Assembly: GCA_034429715.1 (NCBI GenBank)
Contig: DAOUFR010000011.1
Span: 1,601 to 65,600 of the forward strand
Reading direction: 5' to 3'
Origin: Dehalococcoidia bacterium
GTDB lineage: Bacteria; Chloroflexota; Dehalococcoidia; GIF9; UBA5629
DNA length: 64,000 nt
Positions 1,581 to 58,777 of the stretch are shown in pieces. The notes below the pieces were generated by a model. That model made no database searches, was not told the origin of the DNA, and saw only the letters and a program-made list of their open reading frames with translations. The number at the start of each line of letters is the position of its first letter. Positions within the stretch are counted from its first letter, which is position 1. Made by a program: the position numbers and the translations under genes.

Positions 1581-2999
1581 TTGGAAGAAAAACCTAAATC
1601 AAAAATCAACCTCAACCGCATAGACATGCCGCGCCAGGACCCTAAAGTGCGCGCGCATAATTATAACGAAGTGGCCCTGGGCTACACCGATGAAATGGCC
1701 GTGCAGGAGGCCTCACGCTGCATCCAGTGCCCCAAACGCCCGTGCGTGGCCGGCTGTCCTGTAAATGTGGACATACCCGAGTTTATCAAGGCCGTCCGGG
1801 ACAACCAGATGGAGGAATCGGTCAAAATCCTTAAGGGCAAGAACGCCCTGCCCGCCATCTGCGGACGTGTCTGCCCGCAGGAGACGCAGTGCGAGCAGGT
1901 GTGCTCGCTGGGCAAGAAGGGGGCCCCGATAGCCATCGGCAGGCTGGAAAGGTATGTCGCCGATTGGGACCTTGCGCACAAAAAAGAAACAAAGGTTGAA
2001 TTGCCCCCGCCCACGGGTAAAAGGGTGGCGGTCATAGGATCCGGACCCGCAGGTCTGACCTGCGCAGCCGACCTGGCCAGGATGGGCCACAAAGTCACAG
2101 TCTACGAAGCCCTGCACACGGCAGGCGGCGTGCTGATGTACGGTATCCCCGAGTTCAGACTGCCCAAAAAAGTAGTTCAGTCTGAAGTTGATTATGTAAA
2201 ATCGTTGGGAGTGGATGTGCAGCTCGACTCTGTGATGGGAAAACTGGCCACGGTGGACGAGCTGCTGGAGAAGGACTACGACGCCGTTTTCCTGGGCACG
2301 GGTGCCGGCCTCCCCATGTTCCTGGGCATACCCGGCGAGAACCTCAACGGCGTGTACTCGGCCAACGAGTTCCTGACGCGGGTCAACCTGATGAAGGCCT
2401 ACTTGTTCCCCGAGTACGATACGCCCATCAAGGTGGGAAAACAGGTGGCGGTGATCGGCGGCGGCAATGTCGCCATGGACTCGGCCCGCTGCGCCCTCAG
2501 GCTGGGCGCAGACAAGGTCTATATTGTCTACCGCCGCTCTCGCACCGAGTTGCCGGCACGCCATGAAGAGGTCGAGAACGCCGAGGAGGAAGGCATTGTA
2601 TTCAAGTTCCTCACCAATCCCAAGCAGATTATCGGCGACGACAAGGGATGGGTCAAGGCCATGGAGTGCTATGAGATGGAGCTGGGAGAGCCCGACGCCA
2701 GCGGACGCAGGCGCCCCATCACTAAACAGGGCAGCGAGTTCATCATCGATGTCGATGTGGTCGTGGTCGCGCTGGGTACCACGCCCAATCCCCTCATCCC
2801 ATCCACAACCAAAGGCCTTGAGGTTACCAAACACGGCACGGTGGTCGTCGCGGACGAGCAGTCCGGCAAGACCGTCAAGGACCGTGTCTGGGCGGGCGGA
2901 GATGTGGTCACCGGCGCTGCCACGGTGATCAGCGCCATGGGCGCAGGCAAACGTGCCGCCGCCTCCATACACGAGTTCCTGATGGGACAGAAGGCGTAA
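1581..2999 (+). CDS. nfnB: NfnB large subunit (NADPH-dependent GltA/SudA-like oxidoreductase)
   Basis: EASRCIQCPKRPCVAGCP, CGRVCPQETQCE, two GxGxxG motifs; directly follows nfnA; TTG start after GGAGG. Confidence 0.88.
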   Translation: MEEKPKSKINLNRIDMPRQDPKVRAHNYNEVALGYTDEMAVQEASRCIQCPKRPCVAGCPVNVDIPEFIKAVRDNQMEESVKILKGKNALPAICGRVCPQETQCEQVCSLGKKGAPIAIGRLERYVADWDLAHKKETKVELPPPTGKRVAVIGSGPAGLTCAADLARMGHKVTVYEALHTAGGVLMYGIPEFRLPKKVVQSEVDYVKSLGVDVQLDSVMGKLATVDELLEKDYDAVFLGTGAGLPMFLGIPGENLNGVYSANEFLTRVNLMKAYLFPEYDTPIKVGKQVAVIGGGNVAMDSARCALRLGADKVYIVYRRSRTELPARHEEVENAEEEGIVFKFLTNPKQIIGDDKGWVKAMECYEMELGEPDASGRRRPITKQGSEFIIDVDVVVVALGTTPNPLIPSTTKGLEVTKHGTVVVADEQSGKTVKDRVWAGGDVVTGAATVISAMGAGKRAAASIHEFLMGQKA

Positions 3000-3008
3000 C
3001 CGGTCATA

Positions 3009-3038
3009 TTGACAGGCAAGACGAATTTCGTTTATTAT
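3009..3038 (+). promoter_or_regulatory. sigma70-type promoter of the T-box/trpB2 leader
   Basis: TTGACA (3009-3014), 18-nt spacer, TATTAT (3033-3038), about 20 nt before T-box stem I. Confidence 0.65.
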
Positions 3039-3057
3039 GGTAACAATTGAATATGAA

Positions 3058-3335
3058 AAGGCTGTGAACGGGAATAGTAGGTCCTGCAGCAAAGGCCACA
3101 GAGAGTCAAGCAAGGTGAGAGTTGACGCCGGAGCAGGGATCGAATGGGCCCGGGAGCCGCAAACCGAAAGGGAAGTACCTGAGTAGGCTTTGACGCAGGG
3201 ATAGCGTAATCACAATCCAGGGTATCGCCGGCAACACGGCCGTACCTGACAGAGATGGTCCGGCAACGGACCAATAAGGGTGGCACCGCGAAGCTAAGCC
3301 TCTCGCCCCTTGGGTGAGAGGCTTTATTTATTGTA
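3058..3335 (+). ncRNA. T-box riboswitch, Trp specifier, with intrinsic terminator
   Basis: AGTA motif, apical AGAGA/GGTGAGA boxes, specifier GAA-TGG-G (TGG 3145-3147), stem III TGGTCCG-gcaa-CGGACCA, T-box AAGGGTGGCACCGCG (3276-3290), terminator AAGCCTCTC..GAGAGGCTT followed by a T-run. Confidence 0.92.
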
Positions 3336-3432
3336 TGGAGGTCTAAAGGAATGAAATTGAATATGTGGCCCGGCGGGGCCGAATAGTATCAGTCAACAAA
3401 CAGTGACGATTATCTAATTAAAATAAGGAGAA

Positions 3433-4803
3433 ATGAAAGTGAAAAACGATACCAAGATTTTCTTAAAAGAAAAAGAGATGCCGACCAAGTGGTATAACAT
3501 TCAGGCCGATCTGCCCACGCCCCTGCCTCCCATACTGCACCCCGGGACGCACGAGCCGACCATTCTACCCCCGCCCCTCTTCCCTTCAACCCTGAACGAC
3601 CAGGAGTTCAGCAAAGAGCGCTTCATTGAGATACCCGACGAGGTACTGGACGTATATAAAATGTTCAGGCCTACACCGCTGATCAGGGCCCACCGCCTGG
3701 AAAAGGCGCTTGGCACCCCTGCCAAGATTTATTATAAATACGAAGGCGTGAGCCCGGCAGGCAGCCATAAGCTCAATACCGCCATCGCGCAGGCCTACTA
3801 CAACAAGAAGGCCGGCATCAAGCGTCTGGCTACCGAGACCGGCGCAGGGCAATGGGGAAGCGCCCTATCCCTGGCCTGCCAATATATGGGCCTTGAGTGC
3901 AAGGTCTACATGGTCAAGGTCAGCTATAATCAGAAGCCCTATCGCCGTATCATGATGGAGACCTGGGGAGCCACCGTTATACCCAGCCCCAGCACCGAGA
4001 CAAATTTCGGCAAGCAGATACTGGCTGAAGACCCCAACTGCCCCGGCAGCCTGGGAATCGCCATCAGCGAAGCCTGCGAAGATGCCTTCAGCCGCGATGA
4101 CACGTCATACTCACTCGGTAGCGTGCTCAACCATGTGATCCTGCACCAATCCATCATCGGCCTGGAGACACAGCTGCAGCTGGAAAAAGCCGATGCCGAG
4201 GCCGATATGGTTATCGCCTGTGTGGGCGGAGGCAGCAACTTCGGTGGCATGGCCGTCCCCTTCATCGCAGACAAGATTAAGAAAGGCAAGAAAACACAGA
4301 TCATCGCCGTCGAGCCCAGCGCCTGCCCCAGCATGACCAAGGGCCCTTACACCTGGGACCTGGGTGATGTAGCCGGCATGGCCCCCATTTGCAAGATGTT
4401 CACTCTCGGCCACACCTTCATACCCTCACCCATCCATGCAGGCGGCCTGCGCTACCACGGTATGTCACCGCTGGTTTCACACATGCAGAAACTCGGCCTC
4501 CTGGAAGCCAGGGCAGTCGATCAGAAGTCCACTTTTGAGAGCGCCATCCAGTTCGCCCGCACAGAGGGCATCATCCCGGCCCCCGAACCATCCCATGCCA
4601 TCAAAGTACTCATCGACGAGGCCCTCAAGTGCAAGAAGTCCGGCGAGAAGAAGACCATCGTGATGTGCCTTAGCGGACACGGCCATTTCGACCTGAGCGC
4701 CTACGAGCAGTTCCTCTCCGGTAAACTCGAAGCCGACGCTTATGACGAAGCCAAGGTAAAACAGGCACTGTCGCAGCTTCCCAAGGTCGATTTCAAGGGC
4801 TAA
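3433..4803 (+). CDS. trpB: Tryptophan synthase beta chain, TrpB2 type (PLP-dependent)
   Basis: [17 protein letters not shown] (PLP Lys), [28 protein letters not shown]; TAAGGAG RBS. Confidence 0.92.
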
Positions 4804-4817
4804 TAATTACATTACTA

Positions 4818-4871
4818 CAGGCCGGCATACGTGACTGATCAGTAAGAAATCAGTTCGCGTATGCCGGCCTG
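4818..4871. repeat. Long inverted repeat / hairpin downstream of trpB2
   Basis: CAGGCCGGCATACG (4818-4831) and CGTATGCCGGCCTG (4858-4871) are perfect 14-bp arms, with an inner ACTGAT/ATCAGT pair. Confidence 0.75.
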
Positions 4872-4955
4872 AAATAGCTATCCAGGCGTTTGGCCGGCCT
4901 GATACCTTTATGCTAAAATCCCAGCACTATTCCGATCAGATAGAGGTAACCGAAT

Positions 4956-6077
4956 ATGAGAATCCCCGCCGTAACGGCTTTTCTGCTTGCAGCCATACTG
5001 CTCTTCAGTGCCTGCCGCATCGAGTTCTCCACAACTCCCATATCGGCGCCGGCGCCTGCGATGGCGCCCGCCATCCAGCAAATAACTCCGGTCGATCCGG
5101 GCTGGAAATCGCCGGGGCCGGTGGAAAATACGGCGGCCCTCCCCAACATAGCAGACGTGGTTGAAAAGGGCTACCCCGGGGTGGTCACCATCACGACCGA
5201 ACAGATCGTCAACGATATGTTCAGCAGGGTCGTGCTGCAATCAGGCGCCGGTTCGGGCTGGATACTCGACAGCAGCGGCATCATCGTCACCAACAACCAC
5301 GTCGTGGAAGGCGCCCGCAAGGTCGTCGTCCAATTCTCGGACGGCCGGACCAGCGAGGTGACCGCCGACAGGGTTTTCCGCGATCCTCTGACCGACCTGG
5401 CCATCATCAAGGTCGACCTGAGCGACCTTCCAACCGTTGCTATCGGCGATTCCGGCAAGCTCAGGGTGGGCGACTGGGTGGTGGCCATAGGCAATCCACT
5501 GGGCAAGGGCATCAAGGCCAAGGAGGGCATAGTCAGCGGCCTCAAGGTCTCGCTCTCCCTGGACGAGGACGAATCGCTCTATGACCTGATCGAGACGTCG
5601 GCGGCCATCAACGAAGGCAACAGCGGCGGTCCTCTACTTAACATGAAGGGCGAGGTCATCGGTATCACCAGCGCCAAGATCGCCAAGATAGGCGTGGAGG
5701 GCATGGGCTACGCCATAAGCATCAATTCCTCTTTGCCCATCCTTCAGGAGCTGGTCAACAAAGGCTATATTACGCGGCCCTTCCTGGGTGTGGAGCTCTA
5801 CACTGTAAACGACTACGTCGCATACTACAACGGGCTGGCGGTCAAACGCGGAGCCATCATCACCACGGTGCAGCCCGGCAGCCCGGCGGCCAGGGCCGGT
5901 ATGCGCAGATTGGATGTAATCATCCGCTACCAGGGCAAGGAGATCACCACCGCGCCGGAGCTTCTGCGCGAATTGCGCAGCTCCAAAATAGGCGATGAGA
6001 TATCGGTTACCTATGTCCGTGGAAAGAATACTTACACTGTCACCGCACTGCTCACCGACAGTCCCCCTCCCCGATAG
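4956..6077 (+). CDS. htrA: HtrA/DegP-family serine protease with one PDZ domain, probable lipoprotein
   Basis: Catalytic triad motifs TNNHV, DLAII, GNSGGPL; C-terminal PDZ; lipobox-like FSAC. Confidence 0.9.
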   Translation: MRIPAVTAFLLAAILLFSACRIEFSTTPISAPAPAMAPAIQQITPVDPGWKSPGPVENTAALPNIADVVEKGYPGVVTITTEQIVNDMFSRVVLQSGAGSGWILDSSGIIVTNNHVVEGARKVVVQFSDGRTSEVTADRVFRDPLTDLAIIKVDLSDLPTVAIGDSGKLRVGDWVVAIGNPLGKGIKAKEGIVSGLKVSLSLDEDESLYDLIETSAAINEGNSGGPLLNMKGEVIGITSAKIAKIGVEGMGYAISINSSLPILQELVNKGYITRPFLGVELYTVNDYVAYYNGLAVKRGAIITTVQPGSPAARAGMRRLDVIIRYQGKEITTAPELLRELRSSKIGDEISVTYVRGKNTYTVTALLTDSPPPR

Positions 6078-6110: not shown

Positions 6111-9100
6111 CTAATCTTGTTTCTTGATGGACAGGGTGATCTCGAGCCCAGATAATTTGAACTTCTCGCTGTGCGCCGGCGGCTCGGCTGCCTTTTGAAG
6201 AATCTCCGTGGACAGCGTCTCCTGCCTGATATAATCGGCGAAATCCTTCATCACGGCCTGCACCTGCTCTCCGCCCTCGTAGTAGGTCCGGATATGGTCT
6301 GCGATCTCGAGGCCGGCGGACCTGCGCATCGTCTGCAGCCTTCTGACTATCTCCCTGGCAAGGCCCTCAGCCTGCAGCTCCGGGCTGATCTCCGTCACGA
6401 CGCCGACCTGGTAGTCGCCCTCAGCTATCACAGACAGGTTCTTGTCCTCTTTCATCTCTTCCTCTGTGAATCCCATGTCCTTGACGTTTAACTCGTCCGT
6501 GATCTGAGTGCATAGTTTCTGCAGCGCCTCCCTCTCATGAGACGACCTGGCCTTCACGATTACCTTCGGCAGGGGCTGTCTGACCTTGACAGCGCTCCTG
6601 GAGCGCGCCGCCCTTCCCATGCTGCAAACCTTCATAGCCAGCTCGGTGCCGGCGATTATATCCGTATCGATCAATTTCTCGTCCGCCACGGGGAACAGCG
6701 CCAGATGAACGCTCTCCGGCGCATCCTTATCAACCGTCCTGACCAGATTCTGATAGATCTCCTCCGCGACGAAGGGCGTGAAGGGCGCAAGCAGCTTGGC
6801 CAGCGTTACCAGCGCCTGGTAGAGCGTATGGTAGGCCGACAGCTTATCGTCGTCGTTCTGGCTCTTCCAGAAACGCCGCCGGCTGCGCCTGACGTACCAG
6901 TTCGACAGGTCGTTTACAAAGGACTCGATCTTCCGGCCGGCCCCGGTGGGATCATATTCGCCCAGCAGCCTATCTACATCGATTATCAGCTGGTTCAAGC
7001 TCGATATCAGCCACCTGTCCAGCTCCGACGTGATTTTGGGCGCTTTCTTTGCGGGAACGAAATTGTCGATGTTGGCGTAGATAACGAAGAACGAGTAGGT
7101 GTTCCATAGAGTCATGAGAAAGTTGCGCATGACCTCGACCACCATGTCGGGAGACATGCGCCTGACGTTGCCGGGAGGGCCGGAGGTAAACATATACCAG
7201 CGCAGCGCATCCGCGCCTGAGGAATCGAGAACGGTCCAGGGGTCCACCACGTTTCCCCTGGTCTTGCTCATCTTCTCCCCCTGCGCGTCCAGTATATGGC
7301 CCAGGCAGATGACGTTTTTAAAGCAGGGCTGGTCGAATATCAGTGTGGAAAGGGCGTGCAGGCTGTAGAACCATCCTCTCGTCTGGTCCACGGCCTCAGA
7401 TATGTAATCGGCAGGGAAGCTCTGCTTGAAGAGCTCGACATTCTCAAAGGGATAGTGCCACTGGGCAAAAGGCATGGCGCCCGAATCGAACCAGCAGTCG
7501 ATGACCTCGGGCTGCCTGACCATGGTATCGCCGCAGGCGGCGCAGGTGTAGGTGACGTCATCGATATACGGCCGGTGCAGGTCCATGCCGTCCGAGTAAC
7601 CCTGTAATCCGGATTTACTCTTGATCTCCTCCACTCCACCCGGGCATTCGTAACGCCCGCACTTGCGGCACACCCATATATTGAGGGGCGTACCCCAGTA
7701 TCTTTCACGTGAAAAGGCCCAGTCCACATTGTTGTTTAGCCAGTCGCCGAAGCGGCCCTCTTTGATGTGCTCGGGATACCAGTTTATCTGCCTGTTCCCG
7801 GCAATCATCTCGTCCTTTCTGGCGGAAGTCCTGATGTACCAGGTCTTCTTGGCGTAATAGACCAGGGGCGCGTCGCAGCGCCAGCAGAACGGATATGTAT
7901 GCGTGATTTTGACGGTCTTGTAGAGAAGGCCGCGCTTTTCGAGATCGGCCAGTATATCGGCATCGGCGTCTTTAACGAATTTTCCCGAAAATGAGTATGT
8001 GCCGGTGATATTGCCGGCCAGGTCCACCTGCTGTACGAAATCGAGATTGTTATCCAATCCGGCCTGGAAATCCACCTCGCCGAAAGCCGGCGCGATATGT
8101 ACTATGCCCGTGCCGTCCTCCATCGAGACGAAATCGGCGGTAATAATCTTATAGGTGAGGTCTTTAACCGGCTTCTGCACATCGAACTGCCCCGGCTGGC
8201 CTTCCTTTGCGCGCTTCCTTTCGACGCCATATTCGTGAGGGTTATACAGAGGGTAATAGAGCGAGCCTGCCAGCCGGCCTCCCTTGAACGTCTTGAGCAC
8301 GGGCAGGCCGCCCAGTCCGGCCTGATCAAGCAGGGCCTGCGCAAAGATCAGATACTCGTCATCCAGTGCGATAACGGCATAATCGGCATCCTCCGCCAGG
8401 GCCAGCGACGTATTGCCGGGAAGCGTCCAGGGGGTGGTCGTCCACGCCAGGAAGTAGACCTTACCCTTCGATACCGCATCCGCCAGCGTGAGACCGCCGG
8501 ATTTATCGGAAGCCACGGACGGCGGCAGTGTATGTATCCTGAACTTCACATACACGGACGGGTCGACCGTGTCATCCTTGTATCCGAGGGCCACCTCGTG
8601 TGAACTGAGTGAAGTACCGCAGCGCGGGCAGTGGGGTGTTACCTTGTAACCCTGATAGATCAGGTCCTTGTTCCAGAGCTGGTTGATACCCCACCAGCAT
8701 GATTCGATGTATGAATTGTCCAGCGTCACATAGGGATGGTCGATATCCAGCCAGAAACCGATCCTCTCGGTAAGGGAATCCCATTGTTTGAGATACTTGA
8801 ATACACTTTCTCGGCAGAGCGCGTTGAATTTGGCTACGCCGTATTCCTCGATCTGCGCCTTGCCTGTGAAACCGAGCTGTTTCTCGACCTCGAGCTCGAC
8901 CGGCAGGCCGTGCGTATCCCAGCCGGCCTTCCTGGGCACGCAGAACCCCTTCATGGTCTTATAGCGGGGTATCACATCTTTGAAGACGCGTGACAGGACA
9001 TGGTGGATGCCGGGATTGCCGTTGGCGGTGGGAGGACCTTCGTAAAAAATATATCTGGGTGAAGAAGATCTGGCGTCTATGCTCTGCTCGAAGATTTTCC

Positions 9101-13642: not shown

Positions 13643-13701
13643 AATAAATCCTCCAAGCAGCGAAATTCTACTGATTATAGCATACAGCCCGATTCCTCAA
13701 C

Positions 13702-13723
13702 AAGCTTGAGCAAGTTGCGAAAC
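13702..13723 (+). repeat. Left inverted repeat of the island
   Basis: AAGCTTGAGCAAGTTGCGAAAC; its reverse complement matches 16560-16581 at 20/22 positions. Confidence 0.8.
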
Positions 13724-13741
13724 TGCCCATCATCTGCTCGG

Positions 13742-13939
13742 TCATTTATCATCATTTTCCTGCAATATCCTTAGCACCAATTTAATGCGTTTGATTTTGT
13801 TTTCCAGACTGTTAATTTCAGCCATATCATTTTTCACCCTTTTGTGGGCGATATAGACATTCCGCTCCTCATTCCCCAGGGTCTTTATTAGGTTTAAAAT
13901 TACATTATTTTGCAAATTTCCATTAAATGTACTTGACAT
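13742..13939 (-). CDS. Small hypothetical protein (65 aa) with a coiled-coil-like C-terminal half
   Basis: Strong AGGAGG RBS 5 nt before ATG; heptad-like MAEINSLENKIKRIKLVLRIL; divergent from the 161-aa ORF. Confidence 0.6.
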   Translation of the reverse strand: MSSTFNGNLQNNVILNLIKTLGNEERNVYIAHKRVKNDMAEINSLENKIKRIKLVLRILQENDDK

Positions 13940-13949
13940 TGTCTCCTCC

Positions 13950-13977
13950 TAATGTTATTATGAATGTACTAACATTA
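13950..13977. promoter_or_regulatory. Palindromic operator-like site between divergent island ORFs
   Basis: TAATGTTA-N12-TAACATTA; the related AATGTACT..ACATT motif also occurs at 13926-13940 and 13963-13976. Confidence 0.5.
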
Positions 13978-13996
13978 AACTATGGGGGTCGCATAA

Positions 13997-14482
13997 ATGA
14001 TGAAAGTAAATGATGATATTCAGAAGGGGTTGAAGGATGAATTGATAATATTGGAAGACAAACTTTTTCAAATTCAACAAAGGCTTAAGAAAGACCAGGC
14101 TGAGTTTGGCATTGCGAGTCGCAAATATGCCGCGATGAGAGATATGCTTACAAAATATTTGGGGCACAGCCCATATGTGCCTGATGCTAATTTTGATGGG
14201 CTTGAGCCTGTGTCGGATAGGGAGGATTTTTATGGTGGCTTTAGATTCATCTATATGCCTGTTGGAAAAGCGGTAATAACAGCGCTTAAAGAAGCTGACA
14301 CACCACTTTCCCTCGAAGAAATTGTTAAATGGCTTCAGACGGGTGGAGTTGAGCGAGAAGAAAGTTCCCTTATTCGCGCAGTAAATGCAGCACTTATTAA
14401 GACAAAGGGAATACAAAAGTCCAAGGATGGGAAATACTCGTACATACCAAGTGATGTTGAGCCAGATGATGTACCATTTTAA
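13997..14482 (+). CDS. Hypothetical protein: N-terminal coiled coil, winged-helix (HARE-HTH-like) domain, SSB-like acidic tail
   Basis: VITALKEADTPLSLEEIVKWLQTGG..LIRAVNAAL..GKYSY fits a wHTH pattern; ends DVEPDDVPF. Confidence 0.6.
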   Translation: MMKVNDDIQKGLKDELIILEDKLFQIQQRLKKDQAEFGIASRKYAAMRDMLTKYLGHSPYVPDANFDGLEPVSDREDFYGGFRFIYMPVGKAVITALKEADTPLSLEEIVKWLQTGGVEREESSLIRAVNAALIKTKGIQKSKDGKYSYIPSDVEPDDVPF

Positions 14483-14486
14483 TAAT

Positions 14487-14518
14487 GAGGAGTGGCGCTG
14501 ACACGCCACTCCTCGTTT
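14487..14518 (+). terminator. GC-rich hairpin (terminator or processing signal) just upstream of the tRNA
   Basis: GAGGAGTGGCG-ctgaca-CGCCACTCCTC is a perfect 11-bp stem with only a short GTTT tail; it ends 13 nt before tRNA position 1. Confidence 0.7.
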
Positions 14519-14527
14519 GCTATTCGT

Positions 14528-14600
14528 GGGGGCGTAGCTTAGTCGGCAAAGCAGCGAACTTAAAATTCGCTGGATACGGGTTCGAGTCCCGTCGCCTCCA
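14528..14600 (+). tRNA. Atypical tRNA: anticodon TAA (Leu) on a class I body with alanine acceptor identity (G3.U70, A73); CCA not encoded
   Basis: Cloverleaf: GGGGGCG/CGCCTCC acceptor, GCTT-AGTCGGCA-AAGC D arm, GCGAA-CTTAAAA-TTCGC anticodon arm, 5-nt variable loop TGGAT, ACGGG-TTCGAGT-CCCGT T arm, A73, then CTA. Confidence 0.88.
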
Positions 14601-14665
14601 CTATTTAGCCTAGTATTCTGGGTACTAGCAGCTGTAACTGAACTAGCACCCATTGTCTCGGAGGG

Positions 14666-15685
14666 ATGAGCTCCTTGACTACTTATTATGATAACGAATG
14701 CTCTGGAAATGTCAACACTGTACCAGTGGTCAGACAGCTTCATGCTGTATTTAATTCTATCCCAGATGCCGAACTGTTGACCGCTCTGAAGTCTCCAACC
14801 GGAAGACCAGGATATACCGTCAACATTCTCTGGAAGACTTATGTCGCAATGACCGTCCTCAACCTGCCGACATTTGCTGACCTGATAAGAACATTGCATA
14901 ACAATCCGTTTATTGCAATTGCATGTGGGATAACAAGCGAAAAGGACATACCGAGTAAATTTGCGTATTCCCGCTTTATTCGCAAGTTGTCTCAACCTGA
15001 TATCGTACCGATGGTAAAGAATGTATCTCGAAACCTTACTCGGCAACTCTATGAGAAAATTCCAGGTTTTGGCAAAAGTGTGGCAATAGACAGTACAGAT
15101 TTGAAAGCATGGTCGAACGGGGCTAAAAAGCCCGTTTCTGATAAGGATGCAACATGGGCGGTAAAACCGGATACTGCTGGCAAGAAGAAATATTTCTTTG
15201 GTTATAAGCTTCATCTTATGGCTGACACACAATGCGAAATCCCGATAGTAGCGAATGTGACAACCGCCTCTATCGCTGATGTCCGTGTAGCTAGTAGGGT
15301 ATTGAGCCATGCACGATTCGCAAATGGGGCTTTTCATCCTGAATATGTGATTTGCGATGCTGGATATTGCAGTAAGAGCTTGAGGCGATCGATAAAAAGA
15401 CAGTACAGGGCTGAGCCAATAATTAAAGTGAATCCCACGCACAAGAAATCTTTGTTTGTTGAGACTAAGGAATGGCAGCAAATTTACGGTAGGCGTACTG
15501 CCATTGAGCGCATGTTTAGTCGACTCAAGTTGTATAGGCGACTTAACAATATTACTGTTCGTGGTATTCGTAAAGTAACTGTTCATTGTTTTCTTTCATT
15601 AATTGTTACTCAAGCTCAAGCCTTTTATGCTTCATCAAATAATCAATTGGCTTCTGCTAGACAATGTGTTTACTCATCAGTCTAA
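14666..15685 (+). CDS. DDE transposase (IS4/IS5/IS1182-like; DUF772-type N-terminus plus DDE_Tnp_1-type domain)
   Basis: GRPGY.., VAIDST (D1), FFGYKLHL, ICDAGY (D2), RTAIERMFSRLK (E); GGAGG RBS. Confidence 0.88.
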   Translation: MSSLTTYYDNECSGNVNTVPVVRQLHAVFNSIPDAELLTALKSPTGRPGYTVNILWKTYVAMTVLNLPTFADLIRTLHNNPFIAIACGITSEKDIPSKFAYSRFIRKLSQPDIVPMVKNVSRNLTRQLYEKIPGFGKSVAIDSTDLKAWSNGAKKPVSDKDATWAVKPDTAGKKKYFFGYKLHLMADTQCEIPIVANVTTASIADVRVASRVLSHARFANGAFHPEYVICDAGYCSKSLRRSIKRQYRAEPIIKVNPTHKKSLFVETKEWQQIYGRRTAIERMFSRLKLYRRLNNITVRGIRKVTVHCFLSLIVTQAQAFYASSNNQLASARQCVYSSV

Positions 15686-15762
15686 GAAACCATGTTTTGA
15701 TAGGTGTATAATATTCATACTCGATTCCTCTTATAAGATTGATGTTGTCGGGAAGGAAGCAT

Positions 15763-16500
15763 ATGCATTCTTTTGATGGGGTCAATCTCAAAATCGTCAG
15801 GGTAAAGGAACAGATCGAAGCTTTCCGCAGAGATATTGAGTTGTTTCATACCTCTAAGCCCAAACCATGTGAAATCATTCCACATGGCGATACTAAAGGT
15901 CTTAACTATAGTCTTACCTATTGCATCAATCGACACCCCCCGAAAGAATGGGGTGTTCTTGCGGGTGAGATTGCTTATAACCTCCGATCCGCTCTCGACC
16001 ATTTGGCTTGGCAATTGGCATTGCTCAAGACCAATAATCCTTCTAGAAGTACTGAGTTTCCCATTTTTTACGATCAAGCCATATTCAATGATCCAGGAAA
16101 AGGGGTTAAGAATAAATGGAAGGATATACCTCTCTATATCCGACCTACTATCGAAAAGTTTCAACCTTACAATAGAGGAAAGTGGCCGGAACTTGAACTT
16201 CTTTGGTGTCTCCATGAAATTAATCGTATTGACAAGCATAGGGAAATTATCCCGTGTTTTCTTCAACCAAGGATCGGTATCAAAGGTGAGCAATTTGGTA
16301 CTTTTCAACCTATGAAATTGAACGATGGCGATACAATAACAGTCCTCAAATCTGAAGGTACAGCAAAATTGAAGATTATGGCAGAGATAGCGTTCGATGT
16401 CCCTGATTTCAGTTATCTCTTTCCCGCAATGGGTTTCTTGGGCATATATAAATTTATCAGCGATGAAGTAATCCCACGTTTCAAAGTCTTTTTCAAATGA
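15763..16500 (+). CDS. Hypothetical protein, putative HEPN-like RNase
   Basis: GEIAYNLRSALDHLAWQL, TEFPIF and LHEINRIDKHR resemble HEPN-type helical nucleases. Start placed at ATG 15763 (AAGGA RBS). Family assigned from memory of motifs only. Confidence 0.5.
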   Translation: MHSFDGVNLKIVRVKEQIEAFRRDIELFHTSKPKPCEIIPHGDTKGLNYSLTYCINRHPPKEWGVLAGEIAYNLRSALDHLAWQLALLKTNNPSRSTEFPIFYDQAIFNDPGKGVKNKWKDIPLYIRPTIEKFQPYNRGKWPELELLWCLHEINRIDKHREIIPCFLQPRIGIKGEQFGTFQPMKLNDGDTITVLKSEGTAKLKIMAEIAFDVPDFSYLFPAMGFLGIYKFISDEVIPRFKVFFK

Positions 16501-16559
16501 ATTAGCTGTAACCATTGGTATAACGATTTACTCCATATCTAGATATTTATTTACACAGG

Positions 16560-16581
16560 GTTTCGCAACTGCCTCAAGCTT
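16560..16581 (-). repeat. Right inverted repeat of the island
   Basis: GTTTCGCAACTGCCTCAAGCTT, inverted partner of 13702-13723. Confidence 0.8.
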
Positions 16582-56307: not shown

Positions 56308-57717
56308 TTAGATTGTATCCAAATTCTCTATCCCCTCTATTGGGCTGGCTGTGTCTTTATCTAGTATTTTTTGCGCAACTTTTTCTATTTTATCTTTGAA
56401 TTGATCTTTATTAATACCTGCGTCGTCTAGAATTGATAACATATGCTCTGCAACATTCTTTACTTGTTCCTCATTAGTAGCACCGAAAGCATCTCTGGGG
56501 GCTCTAGTTCCCAATGGCCATATATTATTCTGAATAAGGTGTGATATTTCTAATTCTGTAACTTTTTCTTTATGTATTTGGTGTTCCTCTATATCCTTAA
56601 AAATTGTGAGTGGTTGGCGTTCATATGGTTGTATATCATCATCCAAACCTAATAACACTCTGCAAAACGCTAAATGACCATAAAATATATTTTCCATTCG
56701 ATCATAATATGAAAGAGCATAAGCTAAATCTGCGCCGGAAAGAACCACCTTATAGCTATCTCCACTACGATATGCTGAAATGGCTGATACTATCTTCATA
56801 TCCCAGTCTTTTAGAGTACTTGAACTATCAAGGGAACGAAGCGATTGAACATCTTGAAATAGCTGTTTAAGTACTACGTGCAGTTTAGATTCTTGTAGAT
56901 TGCCTGAAGTACGATCGAAAGTTAGAAATATTCCTTGATGTAATGCAGCTTCGATGATCTTTGTACTTAATTCCTGTCCGCTTGTTCTACCTATAAGCGC
57001 CATACCCAACGGTAATACTAGATCATCCACCACTTCAATTTGTTTATAGATATCTTTGGCTGAAATATTCAGTTGTTTTCTCACTTTACTCATGTAATGA
57101 TGAGGTAGAAATACACTGGTACGTCTACGACTTACGAGATGTGTAAGATTCAATAATAATTCTGATAACAAAGAATATCTAATCTGTTTCTCCACTAGAT
57201 TTCTACCCAAGTTCATCCTATTGGATAAAGATTCCATCAATTCCTTAAAATCATTAAAACGAGTTAGCCAACTTGGTGCACCCTCTATATCTGGTTGTTG
57301 AATTTCTTCAATAAATGACTTTAAATGTTTTGGATCATCAATACCTGATGCTAATTGTTTCTTGCGTGTATTTTGAAGTAACATCTCCGTATCTCTTCGT
57401 AAATAGAAGAATAATCGTGGTCGCTGCGACGACATGAATGCATTTCTTGCCACTCTATATTCCTGTCGTGTTATCGAAACTCCTTCTTCAAATAGGCTCC
57501 CCCTTGTATTGCCTACTAGTAATATATAGTAGTCACAGTTATTGATATTCTCGAAGCATTCATCAAATGCTGTGCGGTCACCTTTAATATCAAAATCAGA
57601 GGCTTCTGATTGATACACAATAAATCCTTGCTCATTTAACGTAAAAGATATTGCTGATCTCAGATCACGAAATTCTTTGATAGTTGACGAGATAAATATA
57701 GAGGGTTGATTACTCAC
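56308..57717 (-). CDS. DUF4062 (TIR/nucleoside deoxyribosyltransferase-like) domain protein with an unknown C-terminal region
   Basis: IFISSTIKEFRDLR..CFENINNCDYYILLVG..GS..SITRQEY matches the DUF4062 signature; GTG start with GGAGG RBS. Confidence 0.82.
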   Translation of the reverse strand: MSNQPSIFISSTIKEFRDLRSAISFTLNEQGFIVYQSEASDFDIKGDRTAFDECFENINNCDYYILLVGNTRGSLFEEGVSITRQEYRVARNAFMSSQRPRLFFYLRRDTEMLLQNTRKKQLASGIDDPKHLKSFIEEIQQPDIEGAPSWLTRFNDFKELMESLSNRMNLGRNLVEKQIRYSLLSELLLNLTHLVSRRRTSVFLPHHYMSKVRKQLNISAKDIYKQIEVVDDLVLPLGMALIGRTSGQELSTKIIEAALHQGIFLTFDRTSGNLQESKLHVVLKQLFQDVQSLRSLDSSSTLKDWDMKIVSAISAYRSGDSYKVVLSGADLAYALSYYDRMENIFYGHLAFCRVLLGLDDDIQPYERQPLTIFKDIEEHQIHKEKVTELEISHLIQNNIWPLGTRAPRDAFGATNEEQVKNVAEHMLSILDDAGINKDQFKDKIEKVAQKILDKDTASPIEGIENLDTI

Positions 57718-57760
57718 AATTTAGTACCTCCCAAATCTCTCTCAAATATTTTAACGACGT

Positions 57761-58777
57761 CTACGGGTTACTTTCTCTGAAGTATTTCTCAATATCCATA
57801 TTCCAAACGTAAAATGCTAATACAATTGATACCCAGTCAATTGTTGGAATATCAAAATCTGTTTGGAATATTTTCACTCGTTTGCCTATTTTACCCATGT
57901 TACGAACATGTGTTGTATAACGTTGTTCAATCTCTTGAATAGAATATATTCTTATTGCACCATCGCAGTGTATGAATCGAGGATTGTCTGGTACATAAAT
58001 GCCATGAAAATAGCGGCTTCCTCTTATACTTACTAGTTCTTTTTTAGGTAACTCTTCACAGATAAAATGTATTTCGTTATCTCTCGGAGCCCAAACTAAA
58101 TCTGTAAATTCAACATCAGGCTGAAAGCCATGATTTGGAAGCCATTTCATATGACGATCTTCTTTTAGACTACTAATATCCTGCCAATCAAGTTCCTTAC
58201 CATAAACCCACATCTTATATTCCGTGGGCCTATAGGTTGATGCCTCTTGCACCATTAATGGATCTAATCTGATTCTTATTTCTCCCTGTTTGGCAAGGCG
58301 AAACAGAATATGCGATAACCAATATACTGAATTTATTGAGTAGGCAATTGAAGGAAGAATCTGAAATACTGTGGAACCTCTTTTTAAATAACGCAAAGAG
58401 GTATCAAATTCACTCAATCTAACCAAGCAATTATTATCCAGTTCTATCCCATTCAGATTGGGATGGTCGTATGGCTTAATTTGAGGTGAATTTTTGCTGG
58501 TTTTCAGTAGCGAAATCCTTTTAGTAGCAATAGCTCTATCGATGAAATGACCTATTACCCAATTCACATCAATGTCGCCGTGCAAGTTTGCCAATTCTTT
58601 ATACCAGGAAGGTTGATATTGCCGATCTAGAGTATTAATTTGCGTTAAACGCTTCGACAACTCGCGAAGCATCCTGCCTACTTTAGAATTCTGTTTAATG
58701 TTTTCTGCTATCAGAAATACACTTGAGGTATCGGATGTACTAAAGTAATCAACTATTTCACTTGGAATCTCTATCAT
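57761..58777 (-). CDS. Hypothetical protein (338 aa) with a conserved-looking polar C-terminal motif cluster
   Basis: Long ORF in AT-rich DNA, co-oriented with the DUF4062 gene 43 nt downstream; SRYFHGIY..HCDGAIRIY..HVR..GK motif. Confidence 0.7.
   Translation of the reverse strand: MIEIPSEIVDYFSTSDTSSVFLIAENIKQNSKVGRMLRELSKRLTQINTLDRQYQPSWYKELANLHGDIDVNWVIGHFIDRAIATKRISLLKTSKNSPQIKPYDHPNLNGIELDNNCLVRLSEFDTSLRYLKRGSTVFQILPSIAYSINSVYWLSHILFRLAKQGEIRIRLDPLMVQEASTYRPTEYKMWVYGKELDWQDISSLKEDRHMKWLPNHGFQPDVEFTDLVWAPRDNEIHFICEELPKKELVSIRGSRYFHGIYVPDNPRFIHCDGAIRIYSIQEIEQRYTTHVRNMGKIGKRVKIFQTDFDIPTIDWVSIVLAFYVWNMDIEKYFRESNP

Follow-up and report, generated by a model that had tools for sequence, protein, structure and literature searches.

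We analyzed a 64,000-nucleotide stretch of contig DAOUFR010000011.1 from a Dehalococcoidia bacterium (the window), which contains an AT-rich island inserted between rpsF and ychF. Because it is bounded by 16-bp terminal inverted repeats and a perfect 6-bp direct repeat, this island is a single IS5-like transposon of ~2.87 kb (13702–16581, including the duplications) that moved as one unit, with its whole cargo enclosed by the terminal repeats. Its plus strand carries a winged helix-turn-helix (wHTH)-like gene, a tRNA gene, a transposase gene, and a cargo gene that we call HEPN-like; opposite these lie two long antisense open reading frames (ORFs), the larger of which is designated ORF-as. The features are as follows, with L-numbers denoting related loci.

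13702..13707, no strand: left target-site duplication AAGCTT, a perfect 6-bp direct repeat of 16576–16581
13708..13723, no strand: left terminal inverted repeat GAGCAAGTTGCGAAAC; the same 16-bp repeat bounds related elements
13742..13939, minus: small gene, 65 aa, coiled-coil-like, with Shine-Dalgarno sequence AGGAGGAG; homologues at the equal position in L001 and L005
13940..13996, no strand: divergent intergenic region, into which the antisense frame reaches 36 nt
13997..14482, plus: wHTH-like gene, 161 aa, with no in-frame TTA, CTA, or TCA
14484..14517, plus: perfect terminator-like hairpin after the wHTH stop codon, kept in L001 and L005
14528..14601, plus: tRNA, 74 nt, class I, anticodon UAA, G3:U70, A73 (Rfam tRNA, 73 bits)
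14666..15685, plus: IS5-like DDE transposase, 339 aa (Pfam DDE_Tnp_1, 2e-23; N-terminal DUF772, 4e-8)
13961..15595, minus: ORF-as, an antisense open frame of 545 stop-free codons (ORF 13958..15586 including the stop, 542 aa)
15763..16500, plus: HEPN-like cargo gene, 245 aa, from ATG 15763; alternative TTG start at 15739
15718..16527, minus: second antisense open frame, 270 codons (ORF 15715..16515, 266 aa)
16560..16575, no strand: right terminal inverted repeat GTTTCGCAACTGCCTC, from the inverted-repeat search
16576..16581, no strand: right target-site duplication AAGCTT, a direct repeat of the left copy

TTA, CTA, and TCA are the reverse complements of the stop codons TAA, TAG, and TGA, and all three are missing from most of the plus-strand coding sequence. 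The wHTH gene has none in 161 codons (TTA, 0 of 14 Leu codons), and the HEPN-like gene has none whether read from ATG 15763 (245 codons, 22 Leu) or from TTG 15739 (253 codons, 24 Leu). Transposase codons 1–310 are likewise free of them, and the tail of the gene (codons 311–338) contains five TCA codons and one TTA, such that TTA accounts for 1 of 25 Leu codons in this gene. Out of frame, the same triplets are plentiful, with 10 and 7 in the two other frames of the wHTH gene and 26 and 12 in those of the HEPN-like gene; usage of TTG is normal (10 in the window transposase). Both ORFs, 13958..15586 and 15715..16515, lie in codon register with the wHTH, transposase, and HEPN-like genes and are frame −1 antiparallel ORFs, defined by an in-register overlap of at least 180 bp with an annotated gene. 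ORF-as runs opposite transposase codons 1–310, the spacer, the tRNA, the hairpin, the wHTH gene, and part of the divergent promoter region, and the second frame, which starts 33 nt inward of the right inverted repeat, spans the entire HEPN-like gene.

A sequence-only reading of this DNA had reported TTA counts of 0/14, 0/22, and 1/25 for the wHTH, HEPN-like, and transposase genes, the two in-register antisense ORFs, and the presence of TTA and TCA within the first 30 codons of another AT-rich islet (56308–57717). Our codon count reproduced the first of these observations and confirmed the other two; the first 30 codons of the islet gene (56308–58777) include TCA, TCA, and TTA. Its description of avoidance throughout the island genes holds for the wHTH gene, the HEPN-like gene, and transposase codons 1–310, but not for the transposase tail, with 6 such codons, or for the small minus-strand gene 13742–13939, in which 4 of 65 codons are of this kind (one TTA, two CTA, and one TCA).

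The significance of the depletion was calculated from the Leu/Ser probability for frame −1 antisense ORFs, following a published method (bioRxiv 10.1101/724807). For the combined genes, P = 9e-5 under the host codon usage of the window (1.44 such codons per 100), 1e-16 under the usage of homologous transposases that lack the trait and are matched for GC content at third codon positions (GC3), and 6e-27 under the usage of the islet (56308–58777; 5.6–9.8 per 100). The islet itself (GC 0.36) has two products, a DUF4062-domain protein of 469 aa and a 338-aa protein that lacks annotation.

The plus-strand frames opposite these ORFs are coding. In the wHTH gene, which has 10 homologues from Chloroflexota/Dehalococcoidia metagenome-assembled genomes (MAGs) and weak winged-helix Pfam matches at residues 90–150, substitutions are most frequent at codon position 3, then position 1, then position 2, indicating that the plus frame is coding. 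The plus frame of the HEPN-like gene is also a real coding frame, because its substitution pattern fits, it has 305 homologues, and its AlphaFold2 (AF2) model, composed of four long helices, reaches a predicted local distance difference test (pLDDT) score of 89.7. Within this family R75 is invariant, RxxxxH is the consensus (RSALDH), and D-K-H159 is conserved; the HEPN label itself found no Pfam, PADLOC, or PDB profile match and no Foldseek match in the PDB at E < 1e-3. The plus-frame substitution pattern, the transposase Pfam match, and the confident HEPN-like model together rule out the minus strand as the true coding strand of the wHTH and HEPN-like genes.

We gathered relatives from the wHTH homologues and their contigs, from a genome scan with the transposase, and from a metagenome scan with the transposase alignment. 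This yielded ~90 related loci, of which the taxonomically labelled ones are Chloroflexota/Dehalococcoidia MAGs. One group of elements shares a module with the order small minus-strand gene (mostly HTH_17), divergent plus-strand HTH-domain gene, usually a tRNA, transposase, and a variable third gene, which is either HEPN-like (plus strand) or a DUF4145 gene resembling PD-T7-4 (minus strand). In all module-bearing elements, the in-register upstream gene and the first ~300 transposase codons are devoid of TTA, CTA, and TCA. Pooled over the first 300 transposase codons, 18 module-bearing transposases (5,317 codons; GC3 0.31–0.49) contain TTA and CTA at 0 of 451 Leu codons each and TCA at 0 of 383 Ser codons, whereas 34 sister transposases with the same GC3 use TTA and CTA for fractions of 0.196 and 0.186 of Leu and TCA for 0.186 of Ser. 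Expressed over all codons, the contrast is 0 of 5,317 vs 392 of 10,253 (3.8%). Usage of GCA, GAA, GGA, ATA, AAA, CCA, CAA, AGA, CGA, ACA, and GTA is near-equal in the two groups; the depletion is confined to the reverse complements of stop codons.

Transposases from elements lacking the module are 53–64% identical to the window copy, have a GC3 of 0.37–0.48, and contain 7–18 such codons in their first 300, with antisense open stretches of just 9–114 codons. Two elements separate the module from transposase ancestry: in L061 the module is present, the transposase is closer to the sister group, and the antisense frame is open, and in L029 the module is absent, the transposase is closer to the module group, and 10 such codons occur. 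Sister elements that carry tRNAs show normal codon usage. The trait tracks the module, and neither the transposase tree nor the tRNA.

The sister elements (L029, L032–L044, and L047–L072) have the same inverted repeats, lack the HTH_17 pair, and are ~4.1–4.2 kb long, as exemplified by L037 (1576–5792) and L072 (1353–5472); their minus-strand cargo resembles HigB/HigA and ParB, and some have a tRNA with anticodon ACC, GCC, or GCU upstream of the transposase. Among the module-bearing elements, L001 and L005/L012 have a like element at the same host location, flanked by prfA and an MCP/82-aa gene; its orientation in L001 is the reverse of that in L005/L012, and its third gene is HEPN-like in L001 and DUF4145 in L005/L012. 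This arrangement indicates either an inversion or independent insertions at one hotspot.

Without exception, the module-bearing relatives keep one uninterrupted minus-strand frame of ~545–700 codons. It begins close to the stop codon of the transposase gene and, reading backward, takes in that gene, the spacer, the tRNA gene, the upstream gene, and the divergent promoter region. Across the spacer and tRNA sequences of 20 non-redundant loci, the frame in transposase register contains 0 antisense stops, compared with 72 and 79 in the other frames (Poisson P ~1e-33), and this holds for unrelated tRNAs of 71–89 nt as well as for tRNA-less spacers. In ~20 of 27 loci, the transposase gene continues the frame of the upstream gene, the spacer length being a multiple of 3. 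Decisively, in L015, L018, L019, and L061, where the upstream gene is out of register, it contains 2, 5, 2, and 1 TTA, CTA, or TCA codons in its own frame and 0 in the frame that continues ORF-as; the latter frame has 4–9 in upstream genes that are in register. Openness has been maintained in at least 15 lineages, counted as clusters at 80% transposase identity. Open stretches of at least 100 codons cover 85–91% of the minus strand in complete module-bearing elements (85% in the window, in two frames). A promoter and terminator scan found no terminator-like sites on the minus strand within the element, although the number of promoter- and terminator-like matches was not above the expectation from shuffled sequences.

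These data bear first on whether chance, or the codon usage of a donor genome, could account for the depletion. In-register antisense ORFs are the commonest long shadow ORFs, and frame −1 stop-codon avoidance is widespread and has been catalogued, generally without selection on the antisense protein (bioRxiv 10.1101/724807). However, P values of 1e-16 to 6e-27 for the window alone, the absence of these codons from the family transposases against their regular use in GC3-matched homologues with other A-ending codons unchanged, and the spacer statistics leave this explanation with a negligible probability. Instead, the absence of TTA, CTA, and TCA is very probably the sense-strand footprint of a minus-strand frame kept stop-free by selection. 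The sequence-only reading had mentioned selection for an open antisense frame in passing, and the missing stops in the spacer and tRNA, the out-of-register loci, and the sister comparison strongly support it. Models based on sense codons fail because they predict neither the stop-free non-coding DNA, nor the frame lock, nor the behavior of the out-of-register loci.

Two such models had been put forward, and both involve tRNAs. The tRNA upstream of the transposase varies among elements, with anticodons UAA, UAG, UUG, UUA, GCC, GUA, CCC, UUC, UGG, GGA, UGC, and GUU; in L005 and L012 the tRNA slot is filled by a degenerate tRNA-like remnant, and L023, L025, and L026 have no tRNA. The depletion of TTA, CTA, and TCA is identical whatever the anticodon, with a degenerate tRNA, or without a tRNA. 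Codons that match an element's own tRNA are not avoided in any of the elements, as illustrated by 10 GAA codons in L016 (UUC) and 8 CAA codons in L018 (UUG), and the use of cognate codons in each element is that of other family members. Moreover, a TTA is retained near transposase codon 309–312 in several lineages, and the DUF4145 cargo gene contains 17 TTA, CTA, or TCA codons in 201.

According to the first model, the island genes avoid UUA because the resident UAA tRNA, with its Ala-type G3:U70 acceptor, would misread it. The tRNA is truly anomalous (class I, 74 nt, G3:U70, A73, UAA), and TTA is indeed absent from the wHTH gene, the HEPN-like gene, and transposase codons 1–310. However, the depletion is equally strong in elements with other anticodons, with the degenerate tRNA, or with no tRNA; own-cognate codons are used freely; and TTG, which a U34 tRNA could also read, is at normal use. 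The conserved TTA at transposase codon 309–312 and the TTA in the small gene are likewise at odds with self-protection, which also leaves the loss of CTA and TCA, the stop-free spacer and tRNA, and the out-of-register loci unexplained. We consider this model extremely unlikely: its own refutation test, namely, equal depletion in homologues unlinked to such a tRNA, went against it.

The second model invokes immunity from a nuclease, HEPN-like or another effector, that destroys class II U34 tRNAs. The avoided codons are exactly those read solely by Leu-UAA, Leu-UAG, and Ser-UGA tRNAs, the cargo is defence-like (RxxxxH in the HEPN-like family; DUF4145 resembling PD-T7-4), and these codons are often missing from HEPN-like genes that lie outside the transposon as well. 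Yet avoidance persists where the third gene is DUF4145 or missing (L005, L010, and L015), and the codons occur in the DUF4145 gene (17/201), in the small gene (4/65), and in the transposase tail, where TTA is joined in the window by TCA. Upstream genes that are out of register use these codons in their own frame at four loci, the frame rule is obeyed by non-coding spacer and tRNA DNA in a manner that no sense-codon model predicts, and the HEPN assignment is itself unconfirmed (no Pfam, PDB, or Foldseek match). Contradicted at so many sites, protection from a class II U34 tRNA nuclease appears very unlikely.

The cargo tRNAs are unusual in their own right. A scaffold and anticodon that do not match are found in the window (14528–14601) and in L001, L010, L011, L014–L019, L021, L022, L024, L027, L030, L045, L061, L073, L076, and L109, with scaffold types assigned by eye against E. 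coli tRNAs rather than by an isotype classifier. An Ala-type class I scaffold (G3:U70 and A73 kept; pair 6:67 covaries) bears UAA or UAG, a Leu-like class II scaffold (A73) bears GCC, GUA, CCC, UUC, UGG, GGA, or GUU, a Ser-like class II scaffold (G73) bears UGC, and a Glu-like scaffold bears UUG or the ochre-suppressor anticodon UUA. Because AlaRS, LeuRS, and SerRS do not read the anticodon, these cargo tRNAs are candidates for deliberate mistranslation or suppression. The remnant in L005 (6549–6625; identical in L012) has a Glu-like scaffold, C33, the T-loop CTCGACA, and an encoded CCA; it is missed by ARAGORN and Rfam and looks like a decaying or repurposed tRNA. L015 contains a second tRNA (2123–2197; ACU by ARAGORN) downstream of the transposase and within the inverted repeats, and the antisense frame is open across it.

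Synonymous divergence (pS) among module-bearing transposases is 0.6–0.75, that is, saturated, and not meaningfully below that of the sister group at equal nonsynonymous divergence (pN), so the antisense amino acid sequence is not under selection and only openness is conserved. The ORF-as product varies with the resident tRNA and upstream gene. A search of 5.8 billion proteins with the 542-aa product returned a single match, P0131, an entry that likewise derives from an antisense gene call in a related element; no Pfam match was found, and the AF2 model, built from a 2-sequence alignment, has a pLDDT of 26.7, which is weak evidence but consistent with no fold.

The view that ORF-as is nonetheless a true overlapping gene with a functional protein product draws on the openness kept over 545–700 codons in at least 15 lineages, on an ATG opposite transposase His307 (CAT) in 19 of 20 cases, and on its annotation by one gene caller (P0131). 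Nevertheless, most sister-group transposases (26/34) likewise encode His307 with CAT, and the sense synonymous sites, which correspond to the first positions of antisense codons, are saturated. The middle and C-terminal thirds of the putative protein lie antisense to interchangeable tRNAs, spacers, and non-homologous upstream genes, and the product has no homologues outside the overlap, no Pfam match, and a low-scoring AF2 model. On balance, a functional protein seems improbable.

The place where ORF-as ends offers another view of its possible role. At each of the 15 loci examined, the frame overshoots the start of the upstream gene and enters the AT-rich divergent promoter region; at 10 of them it crosses the full 58–155 nt of this region, and at the remaining 5 it stops 2–22 nt ahead of the small-gene start codon. 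In the window, an 18-nt gap containing the Shine-Dalgarno sequence AGGAGGAG lies between the end of ORF-as and the ATG of the small gene, which occupies the place held in most relatives by the HTH_17 (excisionase-type) small gene. Stop and start codons overlap as ATGA, GTGA, or UGAUG in L010, L018, L021, L027, and L076, although the preferred small-gene start in L010 is a GTG 6 nt downstream of the ORF-as stop rather than the overlap. The spacing of a coupled pair (overlap or a gap of ≤22 nt) is thus found in all 15 loci. On the opposite strand, the promoter scan placed a strong plus-strand promoter-like site, TTGACA-17-TATTAT with TG, at 13933–13961.

This geometry suggests that the frame may be translationally coupled to the small regulator gene or may guard against transcription ending prematurely. 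With slightly less than even confidence, we propose that the frame would serve as a ribosome track rather than as a protein gene, keeping the minus-strand transcript intact and feeding the small gene. In such a mechanism, a long (1.7-kb) minus-strand transcript would be made antisense to the tRNA/transposase operon, ribosomes trailing RNA polymerase would shield it from Rho-type termination and decay, and these ribosomes would reinitiate at the small HTH gene by translational coupling. Output of the regulator, and possibly also repression of the transposase, would then be tied to antisense transcription, and the open antisense frame over the HEPN-like gene would carry the same ORF coverage to the right end of the element. 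More tentatively still, such a frame could represent a "product-free" ORF of 545–700 codons that is kept purely for ribosome transit across the tRNA, transposase, and promoter, protecting the transcript and feeding the regulator by coupling.

Several observations weigh against this proposal or against a single selected track. The minus-strand transcript and its translation are predicted from the DNA. No strong Shine-Dalgarno sequence and start codon for ORF-as are conserved across lineages: our start search turned up only a weak AAGGAA, which precedes the ATG opposite His307 in part of the lineages, and the 5′ limit of the frame lies anywhere from 92 nt within the gene, counted from the transposase stop codon, to 46 nt past that codon, and still farther out in L015 and L016. 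Coupling may be unnecessary, because in most cases the small gene comes with a Shine-Dalgarno sequence of its own and a separate promoter for it could lie in the divergent region. A by-product of 545 residues is also expensive to make. In the window, a 123-nt gap separates the two antisense frames, and rpsF, judging from the sequence, appears to keep its own promoter. Finally, the HEPN-like genes P0013, P0015, P0019, and P0036, which lie outside transposons, also have 0 TTA, CTA, or TCA codons, and P0002/P0003 have 2–3, so the HEPN-like part of the depletion may have a separate cause.

This last point raises the alternative that depletion in the HEPN-like gene is a property of the gene family, reflecting its own antisense frame or a relic of transposon life, and not part of one transposon-wide track. 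The zero counts in P0013, P0015, P0019, and P0036 occur at a GC3 of 0.57–0.68, and the antisense frames of non-transposon copies exceed both gene ends; both points favor this alternative. Against it, P0099 has 8 such codons, and the phage copies L104 and L105 have 19–20. Furthermore, the transposon-borne copies (window, L001/L003, and L028) are only 23–29% identical to one another, and all have 0 TTA, CTA, or TCA codons and antisense frames of 270–520 codons; in L028, the frame leads from the right inverted repeat directly up to the edge of the transposase antisense frame. We regard a family-level origin as somewhat less likely than not for the HEPN-like segment. Members of this family (P0001–P0120) also occur as standalone genes between tsaD and pdxS, beside a 43-aa basic minus-strand gene (L101 and L103), and in phage contigs.

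In the window, the inverted-repeat search gave 13702–13723 and 16560–16581, which break down into the 16-bp terminal repeats and the AAGCTT copies beside them. Related elements share the terminal features of the window transposon. The consensus of the 16-bp inverted repeat across them is GAGCTTGTTGCGAAAC, and perfect 6-bp duplications also surround the inverted repeats of L010 (AACCTA; 2671–5647) and L015 (AACTTT; 107–2418). On the minus strand of the window at ~13670–13701, a promoter-like TTGAGG-15-TATAAT for rpsF lies directly beside the left target duplication, so the transposon landed immediately ahead of the −35 box that serves the rpsF-ssb-rpsR operon. Minus-strand transcription exiting the transposon would enter this operon. 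Host read-through into rpsF was considered as a cause of the open frame and rejected for the window, given the TTGAGG-15-TATAAT between the insertion and rpsF.

The closest known counterparts of ORF-as are frame −1 antiparallel ORFs such as that opposite dnaK, with which it has in common the lack of TTA, CTA, and TCA in the sense frame, great length in register with the sense gene, and an antisense translation free of purifying selection. Unlike the catalogued examples, the transposon frames occur in AT-rich DNA (GC3 ~0.4), where such ORFs are unexpected; they span 2–3 genes together with intergenic spacers and a tRNA gene; they switch to frames −2 or −3 over out-of-register genes; and they come with a matched, trait-free sister clade and an end at the start of a downstream gene. 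Stop avoidance in frame −1 is thus the known kind, and what is new is its occurrence in AT-rich DNA, its passage through intergenic and tRNA sequence, the change of register, the trait-free sister group, and the conserved cistron end. The asa and laoB genes of E. coli O157 (PMC6294744, PMC5810103) are similar in being minus-strand ORFs embedded antisense in an annotated gene. Those two are short genes whose proposed protein products have phenotypes, whereas ORF-as has 545–700 codons and a product of unconstrained sequence.

Both translational coupling and Rho-dependent polarity on untranslated or antisense RNA are established principles of bacterial gene expression. The module-bearing elements resemble such systems in that ORF-as and the small gene either overlap (ATGA, UGAUG) or lie a short distance apart, and in a long predicted transcript that would need translation to escape termination. 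Unlike in known coupled cistrons, the upstream cistron would be a 1.6-kb ORF without product function and antisense to other genes, an arrangement of which we know no described example. A link between tRNA and codon is known from the bldA-type restriction of TTA codons in Streptomyces, and deliberate mistranslation is known from anticodon-mismatched tRNAs such as tRNAProA. No link of this type is seen here: the depletion is tRNA-independent, includes CTA and TCA, and follows the antisense frame rather than gene boundaries.

The element itself resembles the IS5 family and "transporter" insertion sequences in its DDE_Tnp_1 and DUF772 transposase (~336 aa), inverted repeats, target duplication, and passenger genes, and small ORFs have been reported opposite the transposase gene of E. 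coli IS5. It differs from IS5-family elements in its 6-bp duplication, in the combination of a mismatched-anticodon tRNA with an HTH pair and a defence-like gene, and in an antisense frame over nearly the whole element. Our literature searches uncovered no earlier account of this transposon family or of antisense ORFs that cross a tRNA gene.

Stop-avoiding long antisense ORFs, of which the one opposite dnaK is the best-known example, have been on record for decades, and no explanation has won general acceptance. This transposon family provides an unusually clean natural experiment, in which AT-rich composition excludes chance, a sister group with a like transposase, GC3, and tRNA cargo lacks the trait, and saturated synonymous sites separate "open" from "conserved". 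If the proposal is correct, a product-free frame would constitute a class of functional ORF invisible to annotation and to dN/dS-based tests, and it would provide a mechanism for the conservation of some long antisense ORFs. The results also caution that a depletion seen at the codon level need not point to a tRNA. In these elements, gene calling at times picks the wrong strand: in L001, the public call at 7725–8513 (minus strand) is the antisense ORF at the HEPN-like gene rather than the real gene, and in L109, the call at 3501–4778 is the antisense ORF in the wHTH/tRNA/transposase region.

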